Of a stretch of 64,000 nt of DNA, positions 4,993 through 50,804 are shown piece by piece. The DNA comes from an uncultured Acidobacteriota bacterium (GTDB lineage Bacteria > Acidobacteriota > Thermoanaerobaculia > Gp7-AA8), in assembly GCA_963741955.1 (NCBI GenBank), contig CAVUKB010000010.1, positions 288,001-352,000 on the forward strand, read 5' to 3'. Both the position numbers and the translations under genes were made by a program. Positions within the stretch are counted from its first letter, which is position 1. Each line of letters starts with the position of its first letter. The notes beneath the pieces were generated by a model that searched no databases, was not told the DNA's origin, and worked only from the letters and a program-made list of their open reading frames with translations.

Positions 4993-5255
4993 CTCTCCTC
5001 CCGTTTGCGCGCTTCCCGCAAAGTTAAGTCCGCCACGAATCGGCGGCAGCGTCAGCGGTCACGAGCGAGAAGGTCGGAAAGGGGCCAGAGCCCGAGCCCC
5101 GAGCCCCGAACCTCGAGCCTCGAGCCCCGCGCCTCTCCCCAGTCACGCTCCTCTGTGATGCGTGACATGGCCCCGGCCCGAGCACGATGAACATAATCGG
5201 ATCGCGCCCCTTCCGAACCTCTCCCGTCGCGGTCCGGGCGCGAATGGAGTCCGCA

Positions 5256-7472: not shown

Positions 7473-7495
7473 GGCCAGCCGACGGAGGAAAACGA

Positions 7496-9552: not shown

Positions 9553-9633
9553 GGTGACAGGAGCCTCATCCGGCAGCGATTCTGCATGCCCGCTCACCGG
9601 CTCGCGTGAAACCGAAACCGGAGGAGAGTGAAG

Positions 9634-19874: not shown

Positions 19875-21905
19875 ATGACGATCACAGCCTGCCCACGGAA
19901 CTGCTACTCGACCTGCTCGATGGATGTGACGGTCGAGGGGGGAAGGCTCGTGCGAATCGACCCGGTCGCGGCGAATCGAGCGACGCCCGAGGGCCCGTGC
20001 GTGAAAGGGCTGGCGTATGTCGAACGGGCGCATTCGCCGCAGCGAGTGGTCCGGCCGATGCGGCGGCGGAGTGACGGCTCGTTCGAGCCGTTCTCCTGGA
20101 CCGAGGCGATCGACCTCATCGCGTCGAATCTCGAGCGGCTCCGCGAGAAGCACGGTCCTCAGACGGTCCTCTACTACAGCGGAAGTGGCACCAAGGGACT
20201 CCTCAACGGATGCGGGCTCGCGTTCTGGCGTCTTTTCGGCGGCTGCACCACGACGTACGGCGATCTCTGCTGGCCCGCGGGGCTCGAGGCAACCCGTCTG
20301 ACGCTCGGGGCGAATTCGCACAATGCTCCGTGGGATCTCGAGAACGCTCGCCTCATCGTGATGTGGGGTAAGAATCCCGCCGAGACGAACATCCATCAAA
20401 TGCCGCACATCGAGCGGGCGATCGAGGAGGGAGCGAAGCTCGTGGTGATCGACCCGCGCCGCACGGAAACCGCGGAACGGGCGGATCTTCTCGCGCAGCT
20501 CCGTCCCGGCACCGACGGCGCGCTGGCCCTCGCAATCGGGCACGTCCTTCTTCGCGAGCGCCTGATCGACCGCGAGTTCATCGCCGCGCACGTCGAGGGA
20601 TTCGACCGGTATGCGGAGATGGTTCGCGAGTGGACGCCGGAGAGGGTGGCGGAGATCACCGAGCTCCCCGAGCCGAAGATCGAGTCGATCGCGAAACTGA
20701 TCGGAACGATCCGTCCGGTGACGATCGTTCCCGGCTTCGGGATGCAGCGCTACACGAACTCGGGACAGTCGATGCGGGCGATGCTCGCGCTTCTCGCGAT
20801 CACCGGAAACATCGGCAAGCCGGGCGCGGGATGGATGTACGCGAACCTGCAGACGCAGGTGTTCTCGAGCGTGAAGGACCCGGTCGATTTCTATCCACCC
20901 GAGCATCCGGACGGAGTGGTCCGCGTGTCGATCTCCACCGCACGGCTCGGCCGCGACATGCTGCGCACCACCGATCCACCGCTCACGTTCGCCTGGGTGG
21001 AGCGCGGCAATCCGATTCCGCAGAATCCCGAGACGAACCGCGTGATCGAAGCGTTCCGCGGGCTCGAGTTCCGCGTAGTCGTCGAAGAGTTCATGACCGA
21101 CACTGCGCGTGAAGCCGACGTCGTTCTCCCGGCGAAGAACTTCTTCGAGCAGTCCGACGTGATCGGCGCGTACTGGCATCCATATCTCCATCTCCGGCAG
21201 AAGGTCCTGGAGCCGCCACCGGAGGTGAAGCCGGAGACGGAGATCTACCGCGCTCTCGGGCGGCGTCTCGGCATCGACGAAGCGAAGCTCTCCGCTGCGC
21301 TTCCCGGTCCGTCGGATGCGAGCATCGAGGCGTGGCTCGGCGCGAAGCTCTCGCCGCTGGGGATCACTCTCGACCGACTGCGCGAAGGGCCGCTCCTGTC
21401 GCTCGAGTTCGAAGAGATCGCATTCCACGATCTCCGGTTTCCGACCCGATCGGGAAAGATCGAGCTGCGGAGCGATGAGGCGCGCGAACGCTGGGGGGTC
21501 GACGAGCTGCCGCTCTGGCACGAAGCGGACGAGCGTCCACGGCGCGGCGGGAAGTATCCACTGCACATCCTCACTCCGAATACGAAGAACCGGATTCACA
21601 GCCAGTTCGGGAATCTCGACACCATCCGCCGGATGGATCCCGAGCCGTTCGTCGCGATGCATCCGTCCGATGCGCGCGACCGCGACCTCGGCGAAGGTCA
21701 GCGGGCGCGGATCTTCAACGACCGTGGCGCGCTCGAAGTTCCGGTCCGCTTCGATTGGGGTCTCAAGCGCGGCTGCATCACCGTCACGAACGGATGGTGG
21801 ATTGAGCAGGGGGGCGCGGTGAACGTCCTCTCCATGGGGCGGGAGACCGACATGGGACACGGCGCGGCGTTCCACGACAACGCAGTCGAGGTCGAACGGG
21901 CGTGA
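19875..21905 (+). CDS. Molybdopterin (DMSO reductase family) oxidoreductase catalytic subunit, no Tat signal
   Basis: CPRNCYSTC...CVKG Fe-S motif, GDLCWPAG, WGKNPAET, VIDPRRTETA, MTDTAREADVVLPA, C-terminal MopB_CT domain. Confidence 0.9.
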   Translation: MTITACPRNCYSTCSMDVTVEGGRLVRIDPVAANRATPEGPCVKGLAYVERAHSPQRVVRPMRRRSDGSFEPFSWTEAIDLIASNLERLREKHGPQTVLYYSGSGTKGLLNGCGLAFWRLFGGCTTTYGDLCWPAGLEATRLTLGANSHNAPWDLENARLIVMWGKNPAETNIHQMPHIERAIEEGAKLVVIDPRRTETAERADLLAQLRPGTDGALALAIGHVLLRERLIDREFIAAHVEGFDRYAEMVREWTPERVAEITELPEPKIESIAKLIGTIRPVTIVPGFGMQRYTNSGQSMRAMLALLAITGNIGKPGAGWMYANLQTQVFSSVKDPVDFYPPEHPDGVVRVSISTARLGRDMLRTTDPPLTFAWVERGNPIPQNPETNRVIEAFRGLEFRVVVEEFMTDTAREADVVLPAKNFFEQSDVIGAYWHPYLHLRQKVLEPPPEVKPETEIYRALGRRLGIDEAKLSAALPGPSDASIEAWLGAKLSPLGITLDRLREGPLLSLEFEEIAFHDLRFPTRSGKIELRSDEARERWGVDELPLWHEADERPRRGGKYPLHILTPNTKNRIHSQFGNLDTIRRMDPEPFVAMHPSDARDRDLGEGQRARIFNDRGALEVPVRFDWGLKRGCITVTNGWWIEQGGAVNVLSMGRETDMGHGAAFHDNAVEVERA

Positions 21906-23290
21906 GTGGACCGAGAATCGTTCGGTCCATCGAAACGGGGCCGTTGGGGGTCAGAGCTGCATTTTCATTCGACCCGGACCGCTGTACTGCGTGTGAAGCA
22001 TGCAGGGTGGCGTGCGGAATCGAGAACGGAGAAGGGCGCGACACCGGCTGGCGCAGCCTCTCCACATTCAACGCGGCGCGCCATCCCGCACTGCCGGTGC
22101 TCAACCTGACCCTGGCGTGCAACCACTGCGACACGCCGGTCTGTGCGCTCGGCTGTCCCGCAGACGCATACCATCGAGACCCGCAGAGCGCAGCGGTGAT
22201 CCTCGACGGATCGAAGTGTATCGGCTGCCACTACTGCTCCTGGCTTTGTCCGTACGACGCGCCGAAGTTCGACGAAGACGAAGGAGTGATGTCGAAGTGC
22301 ACGTTCTGTTCGCCGCGTCTCGCCGCGGGAGGGGAGCCCGCGTGCACTCAGGCCTGTCCGACCGGCGCACTTTCACTCGGCAGCCGTCTGCCGGGCGAGC
22401 CCGAGCCCGATCTCGCCGGGCTCGGCCGCTTCGGACTCGGCCCTGCACTCTCGATCACTCCGCCGCGCGCGCGCATCCCGGTCGATGCAGCGGAGGATGA
22501 TGAGCCGCCTCCTTCGCCCTCGCTCCCTCCGCGGAAGATCGACGTCGGGCGGGAATGGGCGCTCCTGCTCTTCACGACGATCATGCCGGCGCTCGTCGCC
22601 TGGCTCGGCGCGGGACTCCTGGTTCCGGCGCATTCTCCGGGGGCATTCGCGTTCGTCACCCTCGGCGGCGCGGCGCTCGTTCTTTCCACGCTCCACCTCG
22701 GAAAGCCGCTTCGCGCCTGGCGCGCAGTGCTGAACGTCCGTACGTCGTGGCTGAGCCGGGAGATCGTCTTCGCGAATCTCTTCCTCCTTCTCGGAGCGGT
22801 CTGGCTCTCGTTTCCGCGTTTCGGTGTCGCGGTGGGATGGGCGGCGTTCGCGTGCGGCGTCGCGCTCGCATGGTCGATCGATCACGTCTATCGCGCGATT
22901 CCGCGCGATGAGCCGATGCCATTTCACAGTGCAGAGACGATGCTGGGGGTGGTTCTTCTTTTCGGGATCGCGGCCGGTGCGCGGATCGTCGCATGGCCCG
23001 CTGCGGCGCTGATCGTCGCGCTCTTCGTCTTTCGCAAAGCCTCGGCCGCGACACGAACGCCGGACGAATGGGTGTTCGCGTTCGCGCGGATCGCACTTCT
23101 CGTTACGGCGGTGATCATTCTTCGATGGCCCGAAGCGTTCGCAATGGGGGTCGCTTCGTTCGCCCTCGACCGGCTCGATTTCTACGACGAGCTCGAGCCC
23201 ACAACACCTCTGCGGCGCATGGCTCGCAGAATGGTGATCTCCACGCCGGCGAAGGCGGCCCCGTCCGTTGTCCGTCGTTCCATCTTGTGA
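21902..23290 (+). CDS. Fused DmsB-like 4x[4Fe-4S] domain and DmsC-like membrane anchor
   Basis: CTACEACRVAC, CNHCDTPVCALGCP, CIGCHYCSWLCP, CTFC..ACTQACP. EWALLLFT and STLHLGKPLRAWRAVLNVRTSWLSREI are DmsC-type motifs. Confidence 0.88.
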   Translation: MSGPRIVRSIETGPLGVRAAFSFDPDRCTACEACRVACGIENGEGRDTGWRSLSTFNAARHPALPVLNLTLACNHCDTPVCALGCPADAYHRDPQSAAVILDGSKCIGCHYCSWLCPYDAPKFDEDEGVMSKCTFCSPRLAAGGEPACTQACPTGALSLGSRLPGEPEPDLAGLGRFGLGPALSITPPRARIPVDAAEDDEPPPSPSLPPRKIDVGREWALLLFTTIMPALVAWLGAGLLVPAHSPGAFAFVTLGGAALVLSTLHLGKPLRAWRAVLNVRTSWLSREIVFANLFLLLGAVWLSFPRFGVAVGWAAFACGVALAWSIDHVYRAIPRDEPMPFHSAETMLGVVLLFGIAAGARIVAWPAAALIVALFVFRKASAATRTPDEWVFAFARIALLVTAVIILRWPEAFAMGVASFALDRLDFYDELEPTTPLRRMARRMVISTPAKAAPSVVRRSIL

Positions 23291-36341: not shown

Positions 36342-37727
36342 ATGGCGAAAACCGATCAGAAAGCGATCACCTCCGGCGACACCGTCGGTGGAATTCCCAA
36401 CGCCCTGAGGTCTCAGGTGGCGGTCCTCGACGCGGACGGATGGATCGTCTGGACCAATGAGTCGTGGCGGCGTTTCGCGCAGGAAAACTCGACCACCGAC
36501 GGCGCCGCCTATCTCGGATGGAACTACCAGTCCGTCTGTGAGGCGGCTGCTCGATCCGGCGCGTCCCCCGCCGCGGCGGTCCTTCAGGGAATCATGTCCG
36601 TGCGTGCGGGAACGAGCGACGAGTTTTCGCTGGAATACGAATGCCACTCGCCGTCGGCGGAGCGCTGGTTTCTGCTTCGCGTGACGCGTCTCGCGGCCGA
36701 TTCCCCCGGGGCGCTGGTGGTCACGCACGACGACATTACCGAGCGGAGACGGGCGGAGCTCGAATTGAGGGAAGCCGAGCAGAGGCTCCGGAAAGTTCTC
36801 GAGACGCTCCCGGTCGGGGTCTGGATCATGAACCGTGAAGGGATGATCGTTCACGGCAATCCGGCGGGACAGAAGATCTGGGCGGGGGCCCGTTACGTCG
36901 GCCCGGGTGATTTCGGAGAATACAAAGGATGGTGGGTCAGCAGCGGGAAGCCGATCGCCGCGGACGAGTGGGCGGCGGCGCGCGCGATCCGGAACGGTGA
37001 GATCTCCATCGACGAGGAGGTCGAGATCGAGTGCTTCGACGGAAGCCGGAAGATCATTCTCAACTCCGCGATGCCGCTGCTCGACGCGAACGGAAGGACC
37101 TCCGGCGCGATCATCGTCAACCAGGACATCACCCAACGGAAACGTTACGAGAGCGCGCTGCAGCTGGCGAACGAGAAGTTCGAGAGGGCGAATCTCGAAC
37201 TGAAGGAAGCGCTCGCGCGCGAGCATACTCTCGCGGGCCTCGACAGCCTCACCGAAGTGCACAACCGGCGTTACTTCTTCGAGCTCGCCGAGCACGAGCT
37301 CAACGTCGCCACGCGCTACGGTCACGCGATCTCGATCGTTCTGTTCGATATCGATCACTTCAAGGCGGTCAACGATCAATTGGGACACGAGGCGGGAGAC
37401 TACGTGCTGAAAGAGGTCGCCGGGATCATGAAGACGCAGCTTCGCGAGTCGGACGTCCTCGCGCGGTACGGGGGGGAAGAGTTCATCCTCCTGATGCCGA
37501 ACACCCGCGCTGTCGACGCGATGGTGGTCGCGGACCGGATCCGCGAGCGGATCGCTTCCGTGACCATGTTCCTGCGCACCGGAGTCAGCGTGGTGACCGT
37601 CAGTGGAGGCGTGGCCGATACCGAATCGGCGACCGGAGGGCTCGACGCCATCGTACGGGAAGCCGACCGCGCGCTCTATCGCGCGAAGGCAGCGGGGCGT
37701 AACCGCGTGATGATGAACCGGCGTTGA
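36342..37727 (+). CDS. PAS-PAS-GGDEF diguanylate cyclase
   Basis: DSLTEVHNRR, DIDHFKAVND, RESD I-site, YGGEEF, ADRALYRAK. Start taken at ATG 36342. Confidence 0.92.
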   Translation: MAKTDQKAITSGDTVGGIPNALRSQVAVLDADGWIVWTNESWRRFAQENSTTDGAAYLGWNYQSVCEAAARSGASPAAAVLQGIMSVRAGTSDEFSLEYECHSPSAERWFLLRVTRLAADSPGALVVTHDDITERRRAELELREAEQRLRKVLETLPVGVWIMNREGMIVHGNPAGQKIWAGARYVGPGDFGEYKGWWVSSGKPIAADEWAAARAIRNGEISIDEEVEIECFDGSRKIILNSAMPLLDANGRTSGAIIVNQDITQRKRYESALQLANEKFERANLELKEALAREHTLAGLDSLTEVHNRRYFFELAEHELNVATRYGHAISIVLFDIDHFKAVNDQLGHEAGDYVLKEVAGIMKTQLRESDVLARYGGEEFILLMPNTRAVDAMVVADRIRERIASVTMFLRTGVSVVTVSGGVADTESATGGLDAIVREADRALYRAKAAGRNRVMMNRR

Positions 37728-37730
37728 AGT

Positions 37731-38426
37731 TCATCCGGACTCCTCCACCCTTCGACCCAGCTCCTCGAGCTTCGCGTGGTCCTTCACGATCACTTTTTCC
37801 CGTCCCGATTTCACGATCCCCTCGGCATCCCACGACTTGAGAAGCCGGCTCACCGTGAAGAGGGTCGTGCCGATCATCTCCGCCAGATCCTGGCGCGAGA
37901 GAGTCAGCGCCGGCGAGGCCGATTCGATCCGCTGTTCTTCCAGTTTCACCAGGACCCGCGCCAGCCGCTGCGGCACGGGGATCGTCGCCAGCTCGTGAAA
38001 GCGCTCCTGCAACTCCTGCATCCGCTCGGAGACGATCTTCATCGCATCGACCGCGATCTGCGGATGACGCTCGAGGTAGGGCTGGAGGACCTCTCGCGAC
38101 CAGCCGATGAGCACTGCACCGGTCGTCGCAACCGCGCTGACTGGATAACGGAAGCTGCGCAGCGCAGCGACCACTCCGAACAGCAGACCCGGAGTCATGA
38201 ACGCGACGATCATCTGCTCTCCATCGCGGGTGAGCTTCGAGAGTCGGATCTGTCCTTCCGCGACGATCCACGCCCAGTGGCCTTCATCGCCCTGGTGGAA
38301 AAGGATCTCCCCCGGAACGAGCGTGCGGAGGGTGGTCTGCCGGACGAGCTCGTCGATCTCGCCGGGAGCAAGATGCTCGAAAACAGGGCAGGCTTCCACG
38401 TGTCCTCTGATCGTCGCCGGATCCAC
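37731..38426 (-). CDS. Crp/Fnr family regulator, NnrR/Dnr-like
   Basis: LFHQGD, LSRQDLAEMIGTTLFTVSRLLKSW helix-turn-helix, no FNR Cys cluster. GTG 38426 with GGGAGA RBS. Confidence 0.9.
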   Translation of the reverse strand: MDPATIRGHVEACPVFEHLAPGEIDELVRQTTLRTLVPGEILFHQGDEGHWAWIVAEGQIRLSKLTRDGEQMIVAFMTPGLLFGVVAALRSFRYPVSAVATTGAVLIGWSREVLQPYLERHPQIAVDAMKIVSERMQELQERFHELATIPVPQRLARVLVKLEEQRIESASPALTLSRQDLAEMIGTTLFTVSRLLKSWDAEGIVKSGREKVIVKDHAKLEELGRRVEESG

Positions 38427-38466
38427 ATGGACATTCTCCCGTCTCCGCGGTCGCGGAACAACCGTT

Positions 38467-38484
38467 GATTGACCCGGCGCAAAG
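38467..38484. promoter_or_regulatory. Fnr/NnrR-type box gaTTGACccggCGCAAag
   Basis: TTG-N8-CAA dyad between the divergent regulator and narK. The right arm CGCAAAG matches the NnrR-type consensus. Confidence 0.55.
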
Positions 38485-38699
38485 AAGACATTTTCCGGTG
38501 GCTCGATACTGATTGCGACTCCTGTGTCGAGGACTGAAGCGCTCCACTGCCACGAATCGCGACTCGAGTCGTGGCAGCCCGCAAATTCGAGCCATAAGAT
38601 GATCACCGGAATTTCGAATTCTTCATTCCTCTCCAGCCGCCGCATCGGCGGTGAAAGGGGTGACAGTCCCGGTCGAATCTTCTTCTCCGGAGGCGTCAG

Positions 38700-39995
38700 A
38701 TGAGCAGAATCAAGGGGACACCGCGGCAAGGCCTCTTCGCGGCGACCCTCGGCTTTTTCGTCGGCTTTGCAGCCGTCGCGCTGTTCGGTCCCACCGCGAA
38801 ACTCTTCTCCGATCCGCTGCACCTCTCGTCGCTGGCTGCAGGATTTCTGATCGCCATGCCGGCACTCTCGGGCTCTCTTCTCCGGATCCCGTTCTCCGCG
38901 TGGGTCGACACGACCGGAGGCCGCAAGCCATTTCTCGTGCTCCTCACTCTCTCTCTGGTCGGAATGGCGGGCGTTCTCGCGGTGGTCCTCCTCTTCTATC
39001 CGTCGAGGATGACCGGCGCCGTCTACCCGCTGCTCCTCCTTCTCGGCGTCCTCTGCGGATGCGGGATCGCGACTTTCTCCGTCGGGATCAGTCAGGTCGC
39101 GTACTGGTATCCGCAGAAATCGCAGGGACGAGCGCTGGCGATCTTCGCCGGGATCGGAAACGTCGCGCCGGGCATCTTTTCTTTTCTCATTCCGGTGGCG
39201 CTGGTGAGTCTCGGACTGAGTGGTGCCTATCTCGCGTGGCTGATCTTCCTCGCCGCAGGCACCATCGTCTACTTCGCGTTCGGCCGGAATGCCTGGTTCT
39301 TCCAGCTCCGCACGGAGGGAGCGTCGGTCGACGAGGCGAGGAATGAAGCGAAGTCGATGGGACAGGAGCTCTTCCCCGCCGGAAGTCTTCGTGAAAGTCT
39401 CGCTGCATCCGCGAAAGTCTGGAAGACGTGGGCGCTGGTGTCGATCTACTTCACAACCTTCGGCGGGTTCATCGCGCTCACCGCATGGCTGCCGACGTAC
39501 TGGACGCAATATTTCGGGCTGTCGCTCGTCACGGCGGGCCTTCTCACCGGGATCTATTCGGTCCTCACCTCGCTGATCCGGATCGTGGGCGGACTGGTCG
39601 CCGACAAGCTTCGTGAAGGGGGTGAGAACACCGCTGTCCTCGCTCTCCTGGTGATGCTGGTGGGAGCGCTGGTGATGACCATGGCTCGTGAATACGAGCT
39701 CGCCATTCCGGGGATCATTCTTCTCGCCTCCGGAATGGGGATCTGCAACGCGGCGGTGTTCAAGATCGTTCCGCAGGCGGTGCCGCACGCCGTAGGCGGC
39801 GCTGCGGGGTGGGTGGGTGGACTCGGCGCGTTCGGCGGATTCGTCATTCCGCCGATGCTCGGCTTCGCGGTCAGGGATCTCGGTAACCGCGGCTACGCGA
39901 TCGGCTTCATCATCTTCATCTTCCTTGCTCTCTTTTCGCTCGCGATGGCCTGGATGCTCAAGTACATCCCGAATCCCGATGAGGTTCCGACGTGA
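38700..39995 (+). CDS. narK: Nitrate/nitrite porter (MFS, NNP family)
   Basis: 12-TM pattern, GSLLRIP, YFTTFGGF, NAAVFKIVP, GGLGAFGGF. First gene of the nar operon. Confidence 0.9.
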   Translation: MSRIKGTPRQGLFAATLGFFVGFAAVALFGPTAKLFSDPLHLSSLAAGFLIAMPALSGSLLRIPFSAWVDTTGGRKPFLVLLTLSLVGMAGVLAVVLLFYPSRMTGAVYPLLLLLGVLCGCGIATFSVGISQVAYWYPQKSQGRALAIFAGIGNVAPGIFSFLIPVALVSLGLSGAYLAWLIFLAAGTIVYFAFGRNAWFFQLRTEGASVDEARNEAKSMGQELFPAGSLRESLAASAKVWKTWALVSIYFTTFGGFIALTAWLPTYWTQYFGLSLVTAGLLTGIYSVLTSLIRIVGGLVADKLREGGENTAVLALLVMLVGALVMTMAREYELAIPGIILLASGMGICNAAVFKIVPQAVPHAVGGAAGWVGGLGAFGGFVIPPMLGFAVRDLGNRGYAIGFIIFIFLALFSLAMAWMLKYIPNPDEVPT

Positions 39996-40825
39996 GAGCG
40001 CTCGTGCGGGGATCGCTCGTCGTGCTCGCGGCTCTGGCGGTCGGAGCTGCGGCGTGGGGGGAGAGCCCGCCCGGACCGGCGAGTTCCGCGAGTGCGTCAC
40101 CCGCCGCCGCGAACGCACCGGCCGATCCCGCAGCCGACTACTTTCTGGACACCTGCGCCGGGTGCCACACCATCGGGGGTGGAGTACTCACAGGGCCGGA
40201 CCTCCAGAAAGCCACTGCATGGTCAGCGGACGACCTCCATGCCGCAGTCAAGCGGATGGAGAAAAACGTCGGTCCGATGAGCGACGAGCGGGTCAGCGCT
40301 CTGGTGTCCCTCCTGAAGAGCGGCGAGGTTCAGAAGCGGCTCGAGGCGGCGAAGGAGCGACGCAGGGTCGAGCTCACCGCGACACTGGTGCCGGGCTCCC
40401 CCGCGACCGGCCGCGATCTCTTCTTCGGAGCGAAGACCTTCGCCTCCGGCGGAATTCCGTGTGCAGCCTGCCACGCCGTCGGCGGCGAAGGAGGAAACAT
40501 GGCGGTCGACCTCACTGCCGTCTATCCGCGACTCGGCGAACAGTCGCTGATGTCGACCATCGAACGTCCGGCCTTTCCTCTGATGAAGACCGCCTACGGC
40601 GCTCACGTCGTGAGCTCTCAGGAGGCGATGGATCTCTCGGCCTTTTTCAAGTCCGTGGGGAAAGGGCTGCCGCGTGACGCGAGCGTTCCGCCCCGGAATC
40701 TCGCAGCGCTGCACGGAACCGCGGCCGGGCTGGTGATCGTCGCACTCGGCGGTGTGGCGTGGATCTTCCGCTCGCGTCGCGGCGGATTGAGAAGACGGAT
40801 GCTGCGCGACTCGTACAAGAGGTGA
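39992..40825 (+). CDS. Membrane-anchored diheme cytochrome c (NarC-like)
   Basis: Signal peptide, CAGCHTIGGG..GPDL, CAACH, C-terminal TM helix. Confidence 0.87.
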   Translation: MRALVRGSLVVLAALAVGAAAWGESPPGPASSASASPAAANAPADPAADYFLDTCAGCHTIGGGVLTGPDLQKATAWSADDLHAAVKRMEKNVGPMSDERVSALVSLLKSGEVQKRLEAAKERRRVELTATLVPGSPATGRDLFFGAKTFASGGIPCAACHAVGGEGGNMAVDLTAVYPRLGEQSLMSTIERPAFPLMKTAYGAHVVSSQEAMDLSAFFKSVGKGLPRDASVPPRNLAALHGTAAGLVIVALGGVAWIFRSRRGGLRRRMLRDSYKR

Positions 40826-40831
40826 ATCGAC

Positions 40832-43800
40832 GTGACCTGGATCCAGGATCTCTTCAGCCCCGAAGCCCGCTCGTGGGAAGACTTCTACCGGAACCGGTGG
40901 TCTCACGACAGAGTCGTCCGCAGCACCCACGGAGTGAACTGCACCGGCGGCTGCAGCTGGAACATCCACGTCAAGCAGGGTCTGGTGACGTGGGAGTACC
41001 AGGCGCTCGACTATCCGCGTTTCGATCCCGACATTCCGTCCTACGAGCCGCGCGGATGCCAGCGCGGGATCTCGCACTCCTGGTACGTCTACAGTCCTCT
41101 GCGGGTGAAGTACCCGTACGTGCGCGGGACTCTCCTCGACCTCTGGAAAGAATCGCTGAAGAAGCACTCCGATCCGATCGCAGCGTGGGAATCACTGGTG
41201 ACCGACGATGCGGCGCGCGCGAAGTGGCAGAAGGCGCGCGGGAAGGGAGGGTTCCGCCGCGCAAGCTGGAACGAAGTGCTGCCGATGCTCGCAGCCGCGA
41301 ACCTCTACACTGCACGACGCCACGGTCCCGACCGGGTGATCGGCTTCTCGCCCATCCCGGCGATGTCGATGGTCAGCTATGCCGCCGGCGCGCGGTATCT
41401 GCAGCTTCTCGGCGGGGTCTGTCTTTCGTTCTACGACTGGTACTGCGATCTTCCTCCCGCCTCGCCGGAGATCTGGGGCGAGCAGACCGACGTCGGGGAG
41501 AGCGCCGACTGGTACAAGTCGCGGTACATCGCGGTAGTCGGCTCCAACGTCCTCGGGACGCGGACGCCCGACGCGCACTTTCTGGTCGAAGCGCGGCATC
41601 AGGGAGCGAAAGTCGTGGTCTTCTCTCCCGATCTCAGTCAGACGTCCAAGGTCGCCGACGAGTGGGTTCCGATCCATCAGGGACAGGACGGCGCGTTCTG
41701 GATGGCGGTCACCCACGTCCTCCTCGAGGAGTTCCACACGAAGAGAACCGTTCCCTACTTCGACGACTATCTCCGCCGATACACGGACGGCCCGTTCCTG
41801 GTCGAGCTCGAGCCGGACGGCCATGGCGGTTATGGTGCCGGATCGCTGCTGCGCAGCTCCGCGCTCCCCGAGTCGAAGGACGAGGAGCTCGGCGAATGGA
41901 AGCTCGTGGTCATCGACGAAGATCTGAAGCTCCGGATGCCGCAGGGGACGGTCGGGCATCGCTGGCAGAAGAAGAAGGGACAGTGGAATCTCGAGTCGCG
42001 CGATGCGCGCAGCGGCGAAGAATACACGCCGCGTCTCACCCTCGCCGGAGCGAGTGACGAGGTCGTCCTCGTCCGGATCGACGACTTTTCGGAGCCGGGG
42101 ACTCCGGGCCTGATCCGGCGCAGCGTTCCCGCTCGACGGATCGAGACGATGGACGGACCGCGGCTCGTCACCACCGCATTCGATCTTCTCCTCGCCCAGT
42201 ACGGCGTCCGCCGCGACCTCGGCGAAGGGCCGGAGGGCGAATGGCCCGAAGGTTACGCCGACGCCGCGCAACCGTTCACTCCTGCATGGCAGGAACAGTT
42301 CACCGGAGTGGCGGCCGCCGACGTGATCCGCTTCGCGCGCGAGTGGGGGAAGACTGCGGAGACGACGAAGGGGCGCTGCATGATCATCATCGGCGCCGGC
42401 GTCAATCACTGGTACCACAACAATCTGATTTACCGCGCCGCCATCACCGCGCTGATGGTCACCGGCTGCATCGGTCGCAACGGCGGCGGTTGGAACCACT
42501 ACGTCGGTCAGGAGAAGCTCGTCCCCGTCGCATCCTGGGCGCCGATTGCGTTTGCGCAGGACTGGGGCGGTCCGCCACGTCTGCAGAACGCGCCGTCGTT
42601 CCACTACATGCACTCGGATCAGTGGCGCTACGACCGTCCGTTCGGCGAAGTCTGTCCGGTCGCCGACGACGGCCAGCCGATGGCGTCCGGCCACACCGCC
42701 GACCTGCAGGCTAAAGCCGTTCGCTGTGGCTGGCTCCCCTGTTATCCGCAGTTCGATCGGACCAACGCGAGCGTTCTCGAAGAGGCGCGTGCGGCAGGTG
42801 AGGATGTCGCGAGTCACGTGGTCGGGCAGCTCCGCCAGCGCAACCTTCGCTTCTCGATGGAGGATCCCGACAACCCCGAGTCGTTCCCACGCGTCTGGTA
42901 CATCTGGCGCGGGAACGCCCTGCAGGCCTCCGCCAAAGGACACGAGTACTTCCTCGAGCACTACCTCGGTACCGACAGCGCTTCGGTCGCGGCGGAGGAA
43001 GGGGAGGGATTCGTCGAGGACGTCGTCTGGCGCGACGTCGCGGCAAAGGGGAAGCTCGACCTGGTCGTCGACCTGAACTTCAGGATGGACACCTCCGCCC
43101 TCTACTCCGATGTCGTCCTCCCCGCCGCCTCGTGGTACGAGAAGGACGACCTCAACTCGACGGACCTCCACAGCTTCATCCATCCACTCCAGCGCGCGAT
43201 CACCCCCTGCTGGGAGTCGAAGAGCGACTGGCAGATCTTCCGCGAGCTCGCCCGGGTGACCCAGGAGATCGCACAGGAGTGGATGCCTGACCCCTTCGAG
43301 GATCTCGTCCTCACCCCTCTGATGCACGACACCGCCGCTGAAGTCGCGCAGCCGGACGTGCGTGACTGGGCGAAGGGAGAGTGCGAGCCGGTTCCCGGAA
43401 AGACGATGGCGAACATCACCGTCGTCACCCGTGACTACGCGAATCTCTACAACCGGTTCGTCTCCCTGGGGCCGAAATTCCGAGACGGCGGACTCGGCGC
43501 GCACGGTACGAAGTATCCGGTCGACGATGTGTACGACCGCTGGCGCGAGATTCACGCGGTCGAAAAGTGGGATGGCGAGACGTATCCCTCTCTGCGCGAA
43601 GACCGCTCCGTCTGTGACACCATTCTCCGTTTCGCGCCGGAGACGAACGGCGAGCTCGCGTGGCGGGCGTTCCGCTCCGAGTCGGAGAAGACCGGTCGCG
43701 ACCACACCCATCTCGCGGAGAAGACCCGTGGCGTGACGTACAGCTTCGACGATCTGGTGCGCCAGCCTCGTCGAGTCCTCACCTCCCCGTACTGGACCGG

Positions 43801-44466
43801 CATCACGGGCGACGGCCGTACGTACGCGGCATTCTGTCAGAACGTCGAAGAGCTGATCCCGTGGCGCACCCTCACCGGACGGCAGCATCTCTATCTCGAC
43901 CACCAGGTCTACCGGGCCTTCGGCGAGCACCTCCCGACCTTCAAACCGCGCCCGGACCAGAGGGCGCTCGGCGATCTCGAACAAACCCCCGCCGACCATC
44001 GTTCGCTGGTCCTCAACTACCTCACCCCTCACGGGAAGTGGCATATTCACTCCACGTACGGCGACACGCTCCGGATGGAGACGCTCTCCCGCGGCATCGA
44101 GCCGATCTGGATGAACGACCGCGACGCGGGACTCCTCGGGATTCGCGACAACGACTGGGTCGAGGTGCTGAACGACCACGGCGTCGTCGTCACCCGCGCG
44201 TGCGTCAGCGCACGCATCCCGCGCGGAATGTGCTTCATCTACCACGCGACGGAGCGGACCATCGGAACGCCGAAGACGACCACTCGACTTCGTAACGGAA
44301 AACCGCGGCGCGCCGGCGCGCACAACAGTCTGACCCGGGTGCGGCTCAAGCCGGTGTTCATGATCGGCGGGTACGCGCAGTTCACGTACGCATTCAACTA
44401 CTGGGGGCCGCCCGGCGTGAACCGGGACACCTACGTCGTGGTTCGCAAGACGGAGAGGAAACCCGA

Positions 44467-44473
<7 letters not shown>
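40832..44473 (+). CDS. narG: Respiratory nitrate reductase alpha subunit (cytoplasmic Nar/Nxr type)
   Basis: [53 protein letters not shown]. No Tat signal. Confidence 0.95.
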
Positions 44474-45992
<1,519 letters not shown>

Positions 45993-45996
<4 letters not shown>

Positions 45997-46553
45997 GCGC
46001 GGTGGACGTGGAACCGCTTTGTCTGGGAGTGGAGACACTCGGCGTGCTGTCGCCTCTCTTCCGGTATCCGGCAGAGGGATACGCGCGTGCTCTCGACTTT
46101 GCGCGCGTTTTCGAGACGGAGATCGACGCGGCTGCAGGAAGCGCGCTCGCTCGATTCGCCGCAGAGATCGAGCCGCTCAGTCGAGGCCAGCTCGAGTCGA
46201 CGTACACCCACACCTTCGATCTCGCGCCGTCGTGCAGCCCGTACCTCGGCGCGCACCTCTTCGGTGACGAGACGCCGGATCGCGCGCGGCTGATGGTGGG
46301 CCTCCGGATGACGTACCGGAACCACGGGATCGACGTCGACGGGCGTGAACTGCCGGACCACGTCGCGGAGGTGCTCGAACATGCGCGCTGCTTCGAAGGC
46401 GCAGAGTGGTTCGAGCTCGGAAGGCTGATCCTGATTCCCGCGCTCGATCGGATGACGGCGATTCTCGAATCAACGACGAATCCGTACCGGCATCTCCTCG
46501 ACGCGACCCGGCGAGTGGCTCGGACACTTTTCGAAGAAGGAGGTCTATCGTGA
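45993..46553 (+). CDS. narJ: Nitrate reductase Mo-cofactor assembly chaperone
   Basis: YTHTFD, SPYLG, ELPDH. ATGA overlap with narH. Confidence 0.9.
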
Positions 46554-47878
46554 CCGGCGCCCCGATCGAAAACCTCCTTCTCACCGGGATTCCCTACGCC
46601 GCGATCGTCGTCTTCATCGCCGGGATGTTCTGGCGGATTCGATCGCAGTTCTCGATCTCATCGCTCTCCTCGCAGTTTCTCGAAAGTCGATGGCTCGTCT
46701 GGGGCTCGGTCCCGTTTCACCTCGGGATCACCATCCTGTTCATCGGACATCTGATTCCGGTCATCATCCCGGGGGCGTGGAAAGTACTCGTCTCGAATGC
46801 CTCGTTCCGCATCGCCGTGGAGAGCGTCGGACTCGGCGCGGCGGTACTCACCCTGATCGGGCTGCTCGTCCTCTTCGTGCGTCGGATCACTTCGCGGACG
46901 GTGCAGCCGAATTCGACGGTGATGGATCTGGTGGTGCTCGGAATCCTGATCTTTCAGGTCGCGGTGGGAACGGGAGTGGCGGCGCTTCACCGGTGGGGAT
47001 CACTCTGGTCGGTGGGAACGACCACGCCGTACCTCTGGAGTCTCCTCACCCTCCACCCCGATCCGGCCCTGGTCGGCGGGATGCCGCCTCTGATGCAGCT
47101 CCACCTCACAGGCGCGTGGGTGGTGCTCGCGCTGATCCCGTTCACCCGCCTCGTGCACATGTTCTCCCTCCCTCTGCAGTACCTTGCCAGACCGCCGCAG
47201 CGCGTGATCTGGGCGAGCGCTCGAAGACGTCTCGCGGACGAGCGGCGTGAGGAACGGGACGTTGCGGGACGGCGTCTCCTCCTGAGGGGCGCGGTCGGTG
47301 TGGGAGCCGCGGGCGTCCTTCTCTCCATCGGTGTCGCCGACAAACTCTTCAACTACTTCCGCGGCCCGCAGATGACGCTGGACGAAGAAGCCGCGCTCCT
47401 CAAGAAACGACTCGGCCGGCTCGAAGCGACGACCGAGCAGCGGCAGCTCGAGCTCGAGCGGATGCGGAAGTCGTACATCCGCGTCGCGCGTCTCGGCGAT
47501 CTCTCACGCGACACCGGCTTCTACTTCGTCGATTACCAGATGCGGCCGGCGCTCGCGTTCCGGAACGCCGAGGGTCTGCCCCACCTGATCTCGGCCAAGT
47601 GCACGCACCTCGGGTGCACGGTGGCGAAGGACGTCGACCCGGAAGGACGGATCGTCTGTCCGTGCCACATCTCGTACTTCAACGTCGCGACCGGCGTCCC
47701 GCAGCCGGGATCGCCGGCCAAGGCGCCGCTTCCGATGCTCGGCTGGGTGCTGCGCGAGCCTCAGGGCGGCATCGTCGCGAAGAGAACCGCCGACGGACGG
47801 ATGGAGGGGAAGATCGATCCGGCGGTGCTCGACGACTACGAAGTGTGGATCTCGCGCGAGATGGAGGTTCAGGCCTGA
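46550..47878 (+). CDS. narI: NarI (gamma, diheme b) fused to a Rieske [2Fe-2S] domain
   Basis: SSLSSQFLE, FHLGITILFIGH, LHL...PFTRLVH (all four heme His). Then GRRLLLR plus a Gly-rich TM, CTHLGC and CPCHIS. GTGA overlap with narJ. Confidence 0.92.
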   Translation: MTGAPIENLLLTGIPYAAIVVFIAGMFWRIRSQFSISSLSSQFLESRWLVWGSVPFHLGITILFIGHLIPVIIPGAWKVLVSNASFRIAVESVGLGAAVLTLIGLLVLFVRRITSRTVQPNSTVMDLVVLGILIFQVAVGTGVAALHRWGSLWSVGTTTPYLWSLLTLHPDPALVGGMPPLMQLHLTGAWVVLALIPFTRLVHMFSLPLQYLARPPQRVIWASARRRLADERREERDVAGRRLLLRGAVGVGAAGVLLSIGVADKLFNYFRGPQMTLDEEAALLKKRLGRLEATTEQRQLELERMRKSYIRVARLGDLSRDTGFYFVDYQMRPALAFRNAEGLPHLISAKCTHLGCTVAKDVDPEGRIVCPCHISYFNVATGVPQPGSPAKAPLPMLGWVLREPQGGIVAKRTADGRMEGKIDPAVLDDYEVWISREMEVQA

Positions 47879-48978
47879 TGCCGACACGATTCCAGGCGGC
47901 GACCGCATTCCTCTCCGAGCGCCTTCCGCTCGAGAAGATGAGCGTGCGCTCGCTCATCACCACCAAGATGGTGCCGGTCCACCGCATGAGCTGGGCCTAC
48001 TACCTCGGCGGACTCACGCTCTTCTTATTCATGGTCCAGATGGTGACGGGCCTGATGCTCCTCTTCTATTACGAGCCGACGGTCAGTGATGCGCACGCAT
48101 CGGTCGAGAGGATCACCGAGCACGTGGTCGGTGGTGGGCTGGTGCGGAATCTTCACACCTGGGCCGCGTCGGCCATGATTCTGATGGTGCTCGCGCACAT
48201 GATCACCACCTTCGCGATGAAGGCGTTCGACAAACCGCGCGAGATCACCTGGCTGAGTGGAGTGACTCTGCTTCTTCTCGCGTTCGGATTCGGGTTCACC
48301 GGTTACCTTCTGCCGTGGCACCAGATCGCGGTCAATGCGACCAAGGTGGGACTGCAGTCGATCGAAGACGTCGGGCAATACCTCCCGACGGCGATCGCCA
48401 CCTGGCCTACCCGGCTCCGGGAGCTCATCCAGGGCGAACCGGCGGTGGGACAGGCCACGCTCTCGCGTTTCTACGCCATCCACGTCGTCGTCCTCCCGCT
48501 GGTGTTCCTCGGGTTAGTCGGGCTCCACCTTCTCTCCGTGCAGCTTCACGGCATGAGCCGCGGAGTCGACCGGCCGACGGACCGCACCGAGCGCTTCTTC
48601 CCGTTCTTCATCCTCAAGGATTTCTGGGTGTGGGGCGTGGCGTTCCTGGCGATCTTCACCCTCGCTCTCACGCTGCCGTTCGAATCGTTCTTTCAATATC
48701 CCCTTTTCGAGGCCTACAACGCGATGGGCTCGACGCCGGACGGGATCAAGCCGGAATGGTATTTCTACTTCGTCTACTATCCGCTCGAGCTGCTCCCGTT
48801 CTGGGTGGTGGGGCTCCTGATGAACGGCGCGATCGTCACGCTGTTCGTCTCACCCTGGATCTTCAAAGGGACCAAACGACGGACTCTACAGACGCTCGCG
48901 GTGATCGCGACGACGTACCTCGTGGTGATGACGCTCTTCGGGGGTCAGATCTACAGCGTCTTCCGAGGAGGCAAGTGA
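47878..48978 (+). CDS. Cytochrome b of a Rieske/cytb (bc-type) complex
   Basis: YYLGG, LHTWAASAMILMVLAH, TGYLLPW, IHVVVLP..GLH, IKPEWY (Qo motif). TGATG coupling. Confidence 0.93.
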   Translation: MPTRFQAATAFLSERLPLEKMSVRSLITTKMVPVHRMSWAYYLGGLTLFLFMVQMVTGLMLLFYYEPTVSDAHASVERITEHVVGGGLVRNLHTWAASAMILMVLAHMITTFAMKAFDKPREITWLSGVTLLLLAFGFGFTGYLLPWHQIAVNATKVGLQSIEDVGQYLPTAIATWPTRLRELIQGEPAVGQATLSRFYAIHVVVLPLVFLGLVGLHLLSVQLHGMSRGVDRPTDRTERFFPFFILKDFWVWGVAFLAIFTLALTLPFESFFQYPLFEAYNAMGSTPDGIKPEWYFYFVYYPLELLPFWVVGLLMNGAIVTLFVSPWIFKGTKRRTLQTLAVIATTYLVVMTLFGGQIYSVFRGGK

Positions 48979-49634
48979 TGCGCGCGCGTCTGCTCGGCGC
49001 GATGACCTTGGCGCTGTTGGTCTCTGCGAACGCCTGGGCTTATCCCGAGTTCCAGACCTGGATCTCGAAGCACTCCGGCCATTCCGTCGACTGCGCGATG
49101 TGCCACGTGAATCCGGAGGGGCCGGAGGGATTGGGGGAGGGGCAGATCAGGGGTCTCGACCGTCAGGAGCTCGAACGGCTGAACGACGCGCGTGCGGCGT
49201 TTCAGCCCGGGATCAGGATCGACAGTCCGATCCTGAACGAATTCGGGAATCGCATCATCGAACGGCTCGGACGGAAGGAGTTTCTGGAGATCCGAGTGAC
49301 GGATCCGGGGCGGCTGGTTGCGAAGTACGGCTTCGAATCCGATCTCGACGGCGACGGGATCCCCGACGCACAGGAGTATCTCGACGGGACGCTTCCGATC
49401 GACCCGCGGAGTGGCGATCCATGGCTGCTGTTCGCGCATAATCTCGGCCGCCGATGGCTCGACCTCCTGATGGTGATCCTCGCTACGCTGTGCGGGCTCT
49501 TCGGTCTCAACCAGATGCTCCACTGGTTCGAATTCGCGTCGCGCGAAGAAGAGACCGCGGATGCGACGGTGGACGAACGACATCCCCGGCCGCGCCGCCG
49601 CCCCACCCGCGCACGGACTTCGATTTCGAGCTGA
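48978..49634 (+). CDS. Membrane-anchored monoheme cytochrome c with DxDxDG Ca-binding motif
   Basis: Signal peptide ending AWA, CAMCH, DLDGDGIPDAQE, C-terminal TM. TGATG coupling. Confidence 0.8.
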   Translation: MRARLLGAMTLALLVSANAWAYPEFQTWISKHSGHSVDCAMCHVNPEGPEGLGEGQIRGLDRQELERLNDARAAFQPGIRIDSPILNEFGNRIIERLGRKEFLEIRVTDPGRLVAKYGFESDLDGDGIPDAQEYLDGTLPIDPRSGDPWLLFAHNLGRRWLDLLMVILATLCGLFGLNQMLHWFEFASREEETADATVDERHPRPRRRPTRARTSISS

Positions 49635-49642
49635 AGCAGGAA

Positions 49643-49948
49643 TCAAGAGTGGGGCGATCCACTTCGGCTGGTGTGCCAGAGCTCGAGGACGGCGACGGTC
49701 TGATCCTCTTCCGAGATCGTGTAATACAAATAGTAACCAACGGACGAGAGGAGGATTCTCCGAAGGTGGGGAATCGCGGTGTGTTTCACCGATTCACAGG
49801 CTCTCGGGAACGACGTCAGAGCCAGGAATCCTCGCTAGATCTCCTACGAGAAGAGCAGAGGTGCAGTGCCGCGGTTCTCGAGCCACCACGCGGCGGGTTT
49901 TTCGATCTGGCGCTCGGCGCGGGGAGAGACGCGGATCCGATAACTCAA
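49643..49948 (-). pseudogene. ParE/RelE-family toxin pseudogene with two in-frame TAG stops
   Basis: Manual translation: LSYRIRVSPRAERQIE..AAWWLENR..APLLFS*EI*RG...LRRILL..VGYYLYY..VAVLELWHTSR. TAGs at 49844-46 and 49835-37. Confidence 0.8.
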
Positions 49949-50168
49949 CGACCGCTGTCCTCGAGCCTCCGAATCAGATCGTCATCGTTCATGAAATTAC
50001 CGGACTGAATTTCTTTCAGCGACTCGAGAAGCGCGTCCTCCTCAGTGCGGGAGAGGGAGACGGGCTCGTTCGTCCCGGAGGCGAGGACCGCAACCGGAGT
50101 CCCATCTTCCAATGCGCCCGGGGAAGCGCAATTTTTCCGTCGACAACGGTTCGGGTCACGATCTTCAT
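49945..50168 (-). pseudogene. Cognate antitoxin pseudogene (frameshift)
   Basis: MKIVTRTVVDGKIALP, then a shifted frame GALEDGTPVAVLA...LSRTEEDALLESLKEIQSGNF..DDLIRRLE. Length 224 nt. TTGA overlap with the toxin. Confidence 0.7.
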
Positions 50169-50177
50169 CAATTCAGT

Positions 50178-50238
50178 CTACCCGCACATCCGCCAGAGAA
50201 TTTCCGTTCGAGCGAGACGGTGTGAGAAATACGGGCCA
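50178..50238. mobile_element. Remnant right end of a family A element
   Basis: CGAGACGGTGTGAGAAATACGGG compared with CGAGACGGTGTGAGAAATGCGGG at 12225-12247. Confidence 0.6.
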
Positions 50239-50400
50239 GGAGTCTGCGCGGTAGAAACGTCCGTAGTGAGAAAGCGGAGCAGCGAGGCCAAATTCGTTCG
50301 GATTTGAGGTGCGTAGCGGTGGCTACTCGCCGAAAATCGGGGCGGATTTGGACCGCTGATCCGCTTTCGCAGCAGGACGGTTTCTATCGCGCAGACTCCT
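50238..50400. mobile_element. Palindromic MITE-like element family B
   Basis: TIR AGGAGTCTGCGCG.TAGAAAC / GTTTCTA.CGCGCAGACTCCT. Inner GAAAGCGGA/TCCGCTTTC, CCAAAT/ATTTGG, GTAGC/GCTAC. CCAG and CTAG at the ends. Confidence 0.78.
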
Positions 50401-50456
50401 AGGGGACAGCGATTTCGTACAATCAGAACCACCCCATGACAGGAGGCCCGTTCCCG

Positions 50457-50804
50457 ATGCCGATCCCGACGATCCTGAAATCGATCGCTCTTTTCATCGC
50501 GGCCGGACTCTGCGAGATCGGGGGCGGCTATCTCGTCTGGCTCTGGCTCCGCGAGTCGCGCGGATTCGTCCTCGGCGCAGCCGGCGGCCTGATCCTCTTT
50601 CTTTACGGCATCCTCCCGACCTTCCAGCCCGCGCACTTCGGTCGCGTCTACGCCGCGTACGGAGGAGTCTTCGTGGTGATGTCGCTCCTGTGGGGGTGGT
50701 GGATCGACGGCCGTCGTCCGGACGCTCCCGACTGGATCGGCGCCGCGTTCTGCGCGGTCGGCGTTGCGGTGATCATGTACTGGCCTCGAACGGTGGCGAG
50801 GTGA
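50457..50804 (+). CDS. ynfA: YnfA (UPF0060) small membrane protein
   Basis: [35 protein letters not shown]. Confidence 0.92.

Follow-up and report, generated by a model that had tools for sequence, protein, structure and literature searches.

A stretch of 64,000 nucleotides (contig CAVUKB010000010.1, positions 288,001 to 352,000; assembly GCA_963741955.1) from an uncultured Acidobacteriota bacterium of the Thermoanaerobaculia, referred to below in its whole length as the window, carries at 38700-49634 (+) a nitrate reductase (Nar) operon in which the membrane subunit NarI and a Rieske [2Fe-2S] protein are encoded as one polypeptide, followed by a cytochrome b and a membrane-anchored cytochrome c. 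Relatives of this fusion are encoded in at least 520 species-representative genomes, and the genes around it keep the same order across more than 10 phylum labels, so that we regard a real, conserved and physically linked unit of Nar and a cytochrome bc module as very probable. The route that we infer for the electrons, i.e., a closed supercomplex in which those leaving a Q-cycle enter NarI through three anchored c-type hemes, is given an even chance.

The eight genes of the locus (Table 1) were delimited by reading of the open reading frames (ORFs) together with Pfam and NCBIfam searches; they lie on the same strand and overlap or abut, with overlaps of 1–7 bases at six of the seven junctions and a gap of 6 bases between the first cytochrome c gene and narG. 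The starts of narJ, narI::Rieske, cytochrome b, and the last cytochrome c were set by frame reading, and each of the four has a purine-rich upstream stretch and an overlap with the preceding stop codon (ATGA, GTGA, TGATG). The curated NCBIfam equivalog cut-offs were exceeded by all four Nar subunits, narG, narH, narJ, and narI, while the narK-like gene stayed below that of TIGR00886 (170.7 bits vs. a cut-off of 311.7). The original prediction of eight tightly coupled genes was thereby recovered in full, at the same positions on the + strand and with matching domains, the last cytochrome c being without a family.

In order to see how widely the fusion occurs, 5.8 billion proteins were searched and 8000 candidates were scored, which yielded 560 matches at E ≤ 1e−3. 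Of these, 120 were listed, and all of them (120/120) contain PF02665 and PF00355 together at a length of about 440 amino acids (aa), with the single exception in length of a 293-aa fragment that is identical to the window protein. The best protein matches share 68% identity with the fusion and are labelled Thermoanaerobaculia. When 185,579 species were scanned with one genome each, at least 599 stretches matched the pattern, at least 520 of which encode a relative of the fusion. In public annotation, the gene appears only as ‘nitrate reductase gamma subunit’. The idea that the fused ORF is an artefact of a lost stop codon or of mis-assembly in the window is refuted by these data, as the architecture of about 440 aa is shared by every one of the 120 homologues listed, which come from several independent sources, and by 80 of 80 inspected loci, with two invariant arginines at the junction.

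Operon conservation was surveyed in the best 80 of the at least 520 loci, all from metagenome-assembled genomes and each covered over ± 10 kb only. Their phylum labels were Verrucomicrobiota (16), Melainabacteria/Obscuribacterales (16), Hydrogenedentota (10), Planctomycetota (8), Acidobacteriota (6), and Bacteroidota (4), with the rest in nine smaller groups or unassigned. The eight window proteins were compared with these loci by tblastn and then by gene models, and presence was counted among the loci with room for the gene. The order of cytochrome c2, narG, narH, narJ, narI::Rieske, cytochrome b, and last cytochrome c was constant, with median intergenic distances of − 4 to + 15 bases, and each core gene was found nearly throughout: the diheme cytochrome c in 50/50 loci, narG in 50/51, narH in 63/64, narJ in 72/75, cytochrome b in 67/68, and the last cytochrome c in 64/64. 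All six misses were partial matches, five of them at a coverage of 0.46–0.58 and the sixth being narH of locus L001, where the gene model failed, yet tblastn gave 79% identity over 80% of the protein. With the fusion present in at least 520 genomes and the seven-gene core kept in the 80 loci, the survey of architecture and operon conservation that had been suggested together with the original prediction favours it, and the assembly error named there as its possible downfall is excluded. Its eight-gene unit holds in part: narK does lie next to the operon in the window, but it is not a member of the conserved core, as NarK-like genes are mostly found 3′ of the last cytochrome in related loci rather than 5′ of the operon (close homologues with 65–75% identity lie downstream in L008, L023, and L072).

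A quick maximum likelihood tree of 71 fusion proteins, from which 10 incomplete loci were left out, required 15 changes of phylum label, against a minimum of 11 and a mean of 42.6 for shuffled labels; label changes so near the minimum point to a long residence of the fusion in each phylum. The window protein groups with Acidobacteriota/Thermoanaerobaculia (Shimodaira–Hasegawa-like approximate likelihood ratio test, 99). Two of the surveyed loci show irregularities. In the closest long locus (L001:6268-9453 and L001:13208-13708 (−)), the coverages of narG (0.46) and narH (0.80) suggest frameshifts or assembly errors, and a second narJ-like ORF is located on the opposite strand past the end of the operon, while the cytochrome b at L013:11374-12409 was matched in two adjoining pieces (coverage 0.51 and 0.42), suggestive of a frameshift or a split gene.

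The NarI heme ligands H57, H67, H185, and H203 are invariant in 77/77 aligned fusion proteins, as are the Rieske boxes CTHLGC (351–356) and CPCH (370–373), with C351, H353, C356, C370, C372, and H373, and also the pair R241-R242, which resembles a twin-arginine translocation (Tat) motif and directly precedes a hydrophobic helix. The AlphaFold2 (AF2) model of the fusion has a mean predicted local distance difference test score (pLDDT) of 85.9, with values > 90 in the Rieske domain (309–442), and it consists of five NarI helices, a helix at 224–271 that comprises a cytoplasmic linker and a sixth transmembrane segment, a further helix at 277–306, and the Rieske fold. Foldseek placed this model closest to E. 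coli NarI, with which it shares the five-helix fold (target-normalised template modelling score 0.77–0.80, E ~2e−10), and then to Rieske proteins; sequence searches of the PDB matched the Rieske domain with the Thermus Rieske protein and those of b6f complexes. The C-terminus of NarI is cytoplasmic in the E. coli structure, and since it is followed here by the RR motif and a sixth helix, the Rieske domain should reside in the periplasm, its usual side. The five helices would thus be inserted by the general secretory (Sec) route and the last segment exported by the Tat route, a combined insertion that is known from the three-helix actinobacterial Rieske proteins. The second Rieske box reads CPCH-x-S-Y-F (S375, Y376, F377; about 47672-47680) with invariant Ser and Phe; in high-potential bc1 Rieske proteins, Ser and Tyr are the hydrogen-bond donors at that spot, and Phe in place of Tyr would presumably fit a cluster of lower potential adapted to menaquinol.

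The closest relative of the Nar half is the NarCGHJI system of Thermus thermophilus, which shares with the window the gene order narC-G-H-J-I, a divergent Crp/Fnr gene upstream, an MFS transporter (downstream in Thermus), a two-heme NarC with C-terminal anchor, and an orientation towards the cytoplasm. The diheme cytochrome of the window carries CAGCH at residue 55 and CAACH at residue 157, and a tblastn search of 72,556 plasmids found matches to it in 13 Thermus plasmids only; in T. thermophilus JL-18, the matched gene encodes a c-type cytochrome and immediately precedes narG in narC-G-H-J-I (E 4e−19, with 41% identity across 103 aa that extend from heme 2 to just before the C-terminal anchor). 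In an alignment of 24 sequences that includes Thermus NarC, C55, C58, H59, C157, C160, H161, and M198 are invariant and every sequence ends in a C-terminal transmembrane helix, and the predicted NarC-like cytochrome is hence a homologue of Thermus NarC in the same operon position. NarG of the window is 59% identical to its Thermus counterpart over the whole length, aligned from residue 3, and reading of its N-terminus revealed no twin-arginine motif, from which a position facing the cytoplasm is predicted. The NarI domain is 40% identical to Thermus NarI and also matches E. coli NarI (E 7e−19). Unlike in the window, Thermus NarI is unfused (229 aa), and the operon has no Rieske protein, cytochrome b, or third c-type heme. 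Thermus NarC has been described as a membrane-bound periplasmic diheme cytochrome that is needed for Nar maturation and binds NarI in two-hybrid assays (PMC7694296).

The other half of the operon resembles a complete bc-type module. In its cytochrome b, an N-terminal half of b6 type and a C-terminal half similar to subunit IV form a single chain, which has cytochrome b6 as its closest solved relative (5.3e−46), and the residues H93, H107, H202, and H217 as well as PEWY (292–295) are invariant in all 23 aligned cytochromes b. The b6 cysteine that we take to be the ligand of heme ci is absent in these sequences, its column being occupied by the invariant Y42. The last cytochrome c starts with a signal peptide, carries a heme motif with invariant C39, C42, and H43, and is anchored by a C-terminal transmembrane helix. 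Between heme domain and anchor lies the pattern DxDxDG...E..GT with invariant D122, D124, D126, and G127, and Pfam TSP3_bac was detected in 16 of the 23 members; the bacterial TSP3 repeat is of a calcium-binding type. At the predicted mature N-terminus, a motif Y/H-P-E-F/Y-Q is conserved (YPEFQ in the window). No Met or second His is invariant among the 23 members as a sixth heme ligand. The protein had no match in Pfam, NCBIfam, or the PDB sequences, and the Foldseek search of its AF2 model (pLDDT 87.2) against the PDB gave no fold match (best E 6.8). A likeness to cytochrome f was considered and rejected, as profile and peptide searches of the PDB did not return cytochrome f and the best hit, to an NrfA-like heme motif (E 0.012), was insignificant. 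In the ESM Atlas, scores ≥ 0.9 were obtained for its own cluster only, and rows for Temptin_C and Deinococcota are leads at most. Judged by its position, anchoring, and strict co-occurrence, the last cytochrome is presumed to be the equivalent of the c1 or f subunit. With both halves described, the structural part of the original prediction is well supported: a cytoplasm-facing Nar with NarI and a NarC-like cytochrome is joined by a genuine gene fusion to a full Rieske/cytochrome b/cytochrome c module.

Further fusion variants were sought among 1.84 billion cluster representatives and by Pfam scans. While the NarI::Rieske family of the window falls into few clusters at 50% identity (P0241-P0244), NarI is also joined to other Rieske types (P0263, P0284, P0292), and in P0263, a proteobacterial-type UCR_Fe-S_N Tat signal sits between the two. 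Cytochrome c precedes NarI in P0256 and P0277, and NarI is followed by a multiheme c3/c7 domain in P0309, by a major facilitator superfamily (MFS) transporter in P0288, and by a SLAC1-like channel in P0323. In P0247, a domain similar to the first heme domain of NarC (48% identical to residues 51–123 of the window NarC) is fused to a Rieske part of the window type (52% identical), the order being heme domain, transmembrane helix, RR motif, second transmembrane helix, and Rieske part; a second cluster of this kind (P0387) is 78% identical to P0247 and lies on a contig of 374 kb, the first being on one of 68 kb. There were in addition 127 matches (E ≤ 1e−3) to stand-alone Rieske relatives, many of them 205–235 aa long and 44–66% identical, which begin with their own Met about 20 residues ahead of the RR motif and are in some cases encoded on Mb-scale contigs.

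The explanation to which we give even chances is a single membrane supercomplex, in which NarC-NarG-NarH-NarI, matured by NarJ, would be joined covalently to a Rieske/cytochrome b/cytochrome c module of its own. The five NarI helices would end in the cytoplasm and be followed by the RR motif, the sixth helix, and a periplasmic Rieske domain folded beside cytochrome b. Menaquinol would be oxidized at the Qo site of cytochrome b, with one electron recycled through the two b hemes in a Q-cycle and the other passing from the Rieske cluster to the anchored monoheme cytochrome c, the diheme NarC, NarI heme bD, heme bP, NarH, and finally NarG. For every 2 electrons that reduce nitrate, about 4 charges would then cross the membrane vs. 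2 for the plain NarGHI redox loop (4 vs. 2 H+ per 2e−). As for the original interpretation, the hard-wiring of Nar to a bc module is borne out by the fusion and the conservation of the operon, while the choice among electron routes is one that we infer. Four observations lean towards the Q-cycle, and the same route has been argued to be thermodynamically feasible for Streptomyces Nar1 (PMC7931247). Both c-type cytochromes are membrane-anchored and always co-encoded, which suggests a closed wire of three c-type hemes; separate fusions bring c-type hemes beside both the Rieske domain (P0247, P0387) and NarI (P0256, P0277), and NarI is joined to other Rieske types as well (P0263, P0284, P0292); periplasmic N-oxide reductases are seldom adjacent to the operon in the 80 neighbourhoods; and few of the fused proteins are basic at one column of NarI.

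For this last point, 77 fused proteins were compared with 79 unfused relatives of 205–262 aa at the column of E. coli NarI Lys86, taken to be the basic residue of the NarI quinol site; PDB titles place a NarI-K86A mutant in the same series as a Q-site inhibitor complex. In this column, which shifts by one position between alignments, 4/77 fused but 42/79 unfused sequences are basic (the latter with Arg in 37 and Lys in 5), the fused ones having Phe (45), Ala (11), Val (6), Ile (6), Arg (4), Leu (2), or others (3); Thermus NarI has Arg there, in contrast to the 73/77 fused proteins that are non-basic. We tentatively propose, at somewhat below an even chance for the whole, that the operon may represent a new class of cytoplasmic Nar coupled to a Q-cycle, in which the quinol site of NarI would have been given up and all electrons would arrive via Rieske, the three c-type hemes, and NarI. 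In the same joint proposal, the supercomplex would be the standard Nar of Hydrogenedentota, Obscuribacterales, Verrucomicrobiota, Planctomycetota, and Thermoanaerobaculia, all of them large and mostly uncultured groups, its charge yield would be doubled, and the six-helix NarI::Rieske protein would need combined Sec and Tat insertion.

Several points weigh against a Q-cycle that feeds NarI. The potentials of the E. coli enzyme put c-type hemes above NarI heme bD, which would make the step from c to bD uphill. The Lys86 column moves by one residue between the HMMER and MAFFT alignments, 39 of the 77 fused proteins carry an Arg two columns before it, and all four His are kept in only 52 of the 79 unfused comparators. 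NarI retains its four heme ligands and an invariant Glu91, which also occurs in Thermus NarI and in 55/79 unfused relatives, and may therefore still oxidize quinol itself. The existence of 127 stand-alone Rieske relatives shows that the fusion itself is not obligatory. Subunit contacts beyond the covalent link are presumed, as is the flow of electrons; a complex prediction for NarI::Rieske, cytochrome b, and the mature monoheme cytochrome c gave a score that was not specific enough with respect to one control and speaks neither for nor against binding. Flanks of ± 10 kb are a poor guide to the gene content of whole genomes, and those inspected belong to 80 of at least 520 loci. An octaheme cytochrome is encoded in the genome of the window, 37 kb from the operon. 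Lastly, the role proposed for Thermus NarC runs in the opposite direction: under repression of complex III, it would hand electrons outward to the reductases of nitrite and NO (PMC7694296).

The last two points lead to the main rival, a branching hub, which we consider unlikely while taking it seriously. Both NarI and the bc module would oxidize menaquinol, nitrate would be reduced through the ordinary NarI redox loop, and the three c-type hemes would pass electrons outward to periplasmic acceptors such as NrfA, multiheme cytochromes, NO reductase, or oxidases. Thermus lacking NarC fails to grow on nitrite or NO, and NarC has been proposed as a replacement of complex III (PMC7694296), which fits such a role, as do the heme ligands and Glu91 kept in NarI. 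Candidate acceptors were sought among the 196 flanking ORFs ≥ 300 aa without a Nar match, all of which were scanned with Pfam (many had no family). Within 10 kb of the operon, these were NrfA in two of the 80 loci (L026, L047), a multiheme cytochrome in L004, a COX1-family protein in L046, and NnrS in L037, L020, and L075, while cd1 and copper nitrite reductase and N2O reductase families were absent from the 196 ORFs of the 80 loci at the thresholds used. In the window, the octaheme c-type cytochrome at 151-1422 (−) (423 aa, eight CxxCH, Multi-haem_cyto 3.3e−28, N-terminal hydrophobic segment), which the original prediction had named as a possible acceptor, is unlinked to the operon. The acceptors are thus not co-encoded with their putative donor, a bc complex of general use should neither be retained within the nar operon in 67/68 loci across more than 10 phylum labels nor be joined covalently to NarI, and both c cytochromes are anchored in the membrane rather than soluble.

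It is still less probable that the fusion serves assembly or stoichiometry only, with two independent quinol oxidases that are co-expressed and co-localized but exchange no electrons, the bc module perhaps serving an oxidase whose gene lies elsewhere. NarI is often fused to functionally loose neighbours, as in the NarI::MFS (P0288) and NarI::SLAC1-like (P0323) proteins, and split Rieske forms do exist. However, NarI-Rieske fusions arose with at least two different Rieske types, the operon always brings its own two anchored c cytochromes, and if no electrons were exchanged, it would be difficult to see why two clusters have a NarC-like heme domain on this Rieske type. The reverse operation of the whole unit as a nitrite oxidoreductase, with electrons leaving via NarI and NarC and the bc module running backwards to quinone, is highly improbable. 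NarG scores above the narG equivalog cut-off and shares 59% identity with the nitrate reductase of Thermus, the Crp/Fnr and Rrf2 regulators, NarK-type transporters, and ScdA/hemerythrin proteins of related loci are typical of anaerobic nitrate respiration, no oxidase is linked besides the one COX1-family gene in L046, and the host phylum labels are those of mainly heterotrophic groups. What speaks for it is that Nitrobacter has a very similar cluster, with a NarC homologue acting in the oxidative direction (PMC7694296).

Comparison with described systems shows how much of this arrangement is new. E. coli NarGHI (PDB 1Q16) shares with the window the four subunit families, all above their equivalog cut-offs, and the NarI fold, but its NarI (225 aa, with Lys86) oxidizes quinol as a separate subunit, and there is no c-type cytochrome or bc module, whereas NarI of the window is not a stand-alone quinone link, given that the Rieske protein is fused to it and the operon adds a cytochrome b and three c-type hemes. 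With b6f and bc complexes, the window has in common the Rieske boxes, a Tat-like motif before the Rieske anchor, the four His and PEWY of cytochrome b, and an anchored c-type heme subunit. It departs from b6f in having b6 and subunit IV in one chain without the heme-ci cysteine, and from both in a c subunit without likeness in sequence or fold to solved proteins and in a Rieske domain placed behind the five-helix NarI. The long helix at 277–306 ahead of the Rieske domain in the AF2 model is a further difference from bc complexes, as bc1 structures have only a short hinge there.

The haloarchaeal Rieske/cytb-Nar (pNar, NarB/NarC) likewise has Rieske and cytochrome b genes within the nar cluster, and a Q-cycle has been proposed to feed its NarH and NarG (PMC3509893). 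That enzyme faces outward with a periplasmic b-type cytochrome as the proposed link, and no NarI is mentioned in the model as described there; in the window, on the contrary, NarG is without a Tat signal, a fused NarI belongs to the enzyme, and c-type hemes take the place of the b-type link. The cytoplasmic NarGHI of Streptomyces coelicolor (Nar1) depends on an active bcc-aa3 supercomplex and co-purifies with it, and electrons were proposed to pass from diheme QcrC to NarI heme bD, with a Q-cycle, ~505 mV available, and 4 vs. 2 H+ per 2e− (PMC7931247). In Streptomyces, a weak or transient association brings together the products of unlinked and unfused genes, and the complex includes an oxidase, in contrast to the genetic and covalent link and the operon without an oxidase gene in the window. 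The favoured mechanism is therefore a published hypothesis (PMC7931247) and not new in concept. What appears to be new is a bacterial locus that hard-wires the Q-cycle idea by gene fusion, together with NarC and a novel third c-type heme protein, in many phyla. A full-text literature search, which left most subscription journals outside its coverage, turned up neither a NarI-Rieske fusion nor this operon, and an earlier description is possible.

The surroundings of the operon contain several recurrent genes. Divergent from it in the window lies a Crp/Fnr-family regulator gene (Table 1), likely the regulator of the nar operon, with an ambiguous start (GTG at 38426 or 38399); a promoter and terminator scan of 37600-50600 gave counts close to those in shuffled sequence. 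Clustering of 545 ORFs ≥ 90 aa from the flanks of the 80 loci identified as recurrent neighbours the NarK-like MFS proteins (41 loci), an Rrf2-family regulator (19), ScdA/hemerythrin proteins (10), an unannotated protein of about 567 aa (8; for example, L044:17364-19067), and molybdenum-cofactor genes. The Rrf2-family regulator is mostly located directly upstream of the operon and, as we assume, resembles the NO-sensing NsrR, while the ScdA/hemerythrin family repairs iron centres under NO stress. SLAC1/TehA-like channels were observed 3′ of the operon in L003 and L046. Elsewhere in the window, 19875-23290 (+) encodes a second molybdopterin oxidoreductase (676 aa, Fe4S4 domain) and then a 462-aa protein that combines a 4Fe-4S dicluster with a DmsC-like anchor. 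A 2-oxoacid:ferredoxin oxidoreductase cluster occupies 5187-10029 (+); its first protein (761 aa) unites POR gamma, pyridine-nucleotide-disulfide oxidoreductase, and Fe-S domains, and a class III (c3/c7-type) cytochrome follows (9628-10029).

Table 1. Genes of the nar operon, domains of the fusion protein, and the divergent regulator gene, in window coordinates; bit scores are given against the respective NCBIfam cut-offs (TM, transmembrane; bisMGD, bis-molybdopterin guanine dinucleotide)
Feature	Coordinates	Strand	Characteristics
Crp/Fnr-family regulator	37731..38426	−	Pfam cNMP_binding 4.3e−18, HTH_Crp_2 2.7e−17, Crp 5.1e−8; divergent from operon
narK-like MFS nitrate/nitrite transporter, 431 aa	38700..39995	+	MFS_1 8.4e−30; TIGR00886 4.8e−50
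NarC-like diheme cytochrome c, 277 aa	39992..40825	+	Pfam Cytochrome_CBB3, Cytochrom_C; signal peptide, C-terminal TM helix
narG, Mo-bisMGD catalytic subunit, 1213 aa	40832..44473	+	TIGR01580 1521 bits vs. cut-off 1084
narH, Fe-S subunit, 509 aa	44467..45996	+	TIGR01660 638.7 vs. 524 bits; Fer4_11, Nitr_red_bet_C
narJ chaperone, 186 aa	45993..46553	+	TIGR00684 68.7 vs. 59.35 bits; ATG at 45993 overlaps narH stop
narI::Rieske, one 442-aa ORF	46550..47878	+	Pfam NarI residues 8–221, Rieske residues 311–393
NarI domain of fusion, residues 1–222	46550..47215	+	Nitrate_red_gam 9.3e−56; TIGR00351 113.8 vs. 105.55 bits
Linker of fusion, residues 223–308	47216..47473	+	RR motif, sixth TM helix, periplasmic helix of ~30 residues
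Rieske [2Fe-2S] domain of fusion, residues 309–442 and stop	47474..47878	+	Pfam Rieske 1.1e−7
Cytochrome b, 366 aa	47878..48978	+	Cytochrome_B 6.5e−39, Cytochrom_B_C 1.5e−7
Monoheme cytochrome c, 218 aa	48978..49634	+	one CAMCH at residue 39; no Pfam or NCBIfam family

In the textbook view, the electrons of bacterial Nar come directly from quinol without a passage through the bc complex (PMC3509893), and the coupling of Nar to a Q-cycle has so far been an open proposal based on weak co-purification data from Streptomyces (PMC7931247). The NarI::Rieske fusion gives this proposal a concrete form that is open to purification, imaging, and assays, and it also lends itself to the study of dual Sec/Tat membrane insertion. 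Annotation of the gene as a ‘nitrate reductase gamma subunit’ misses a bc complex. The energy gained from nitrate may be greater with this operon than with the textbook enzyme, and if the coupling is true, the energy yields assumed for nitrate respiration in lineages of soil, groundwater, and wastewater would be up to 2× too low.

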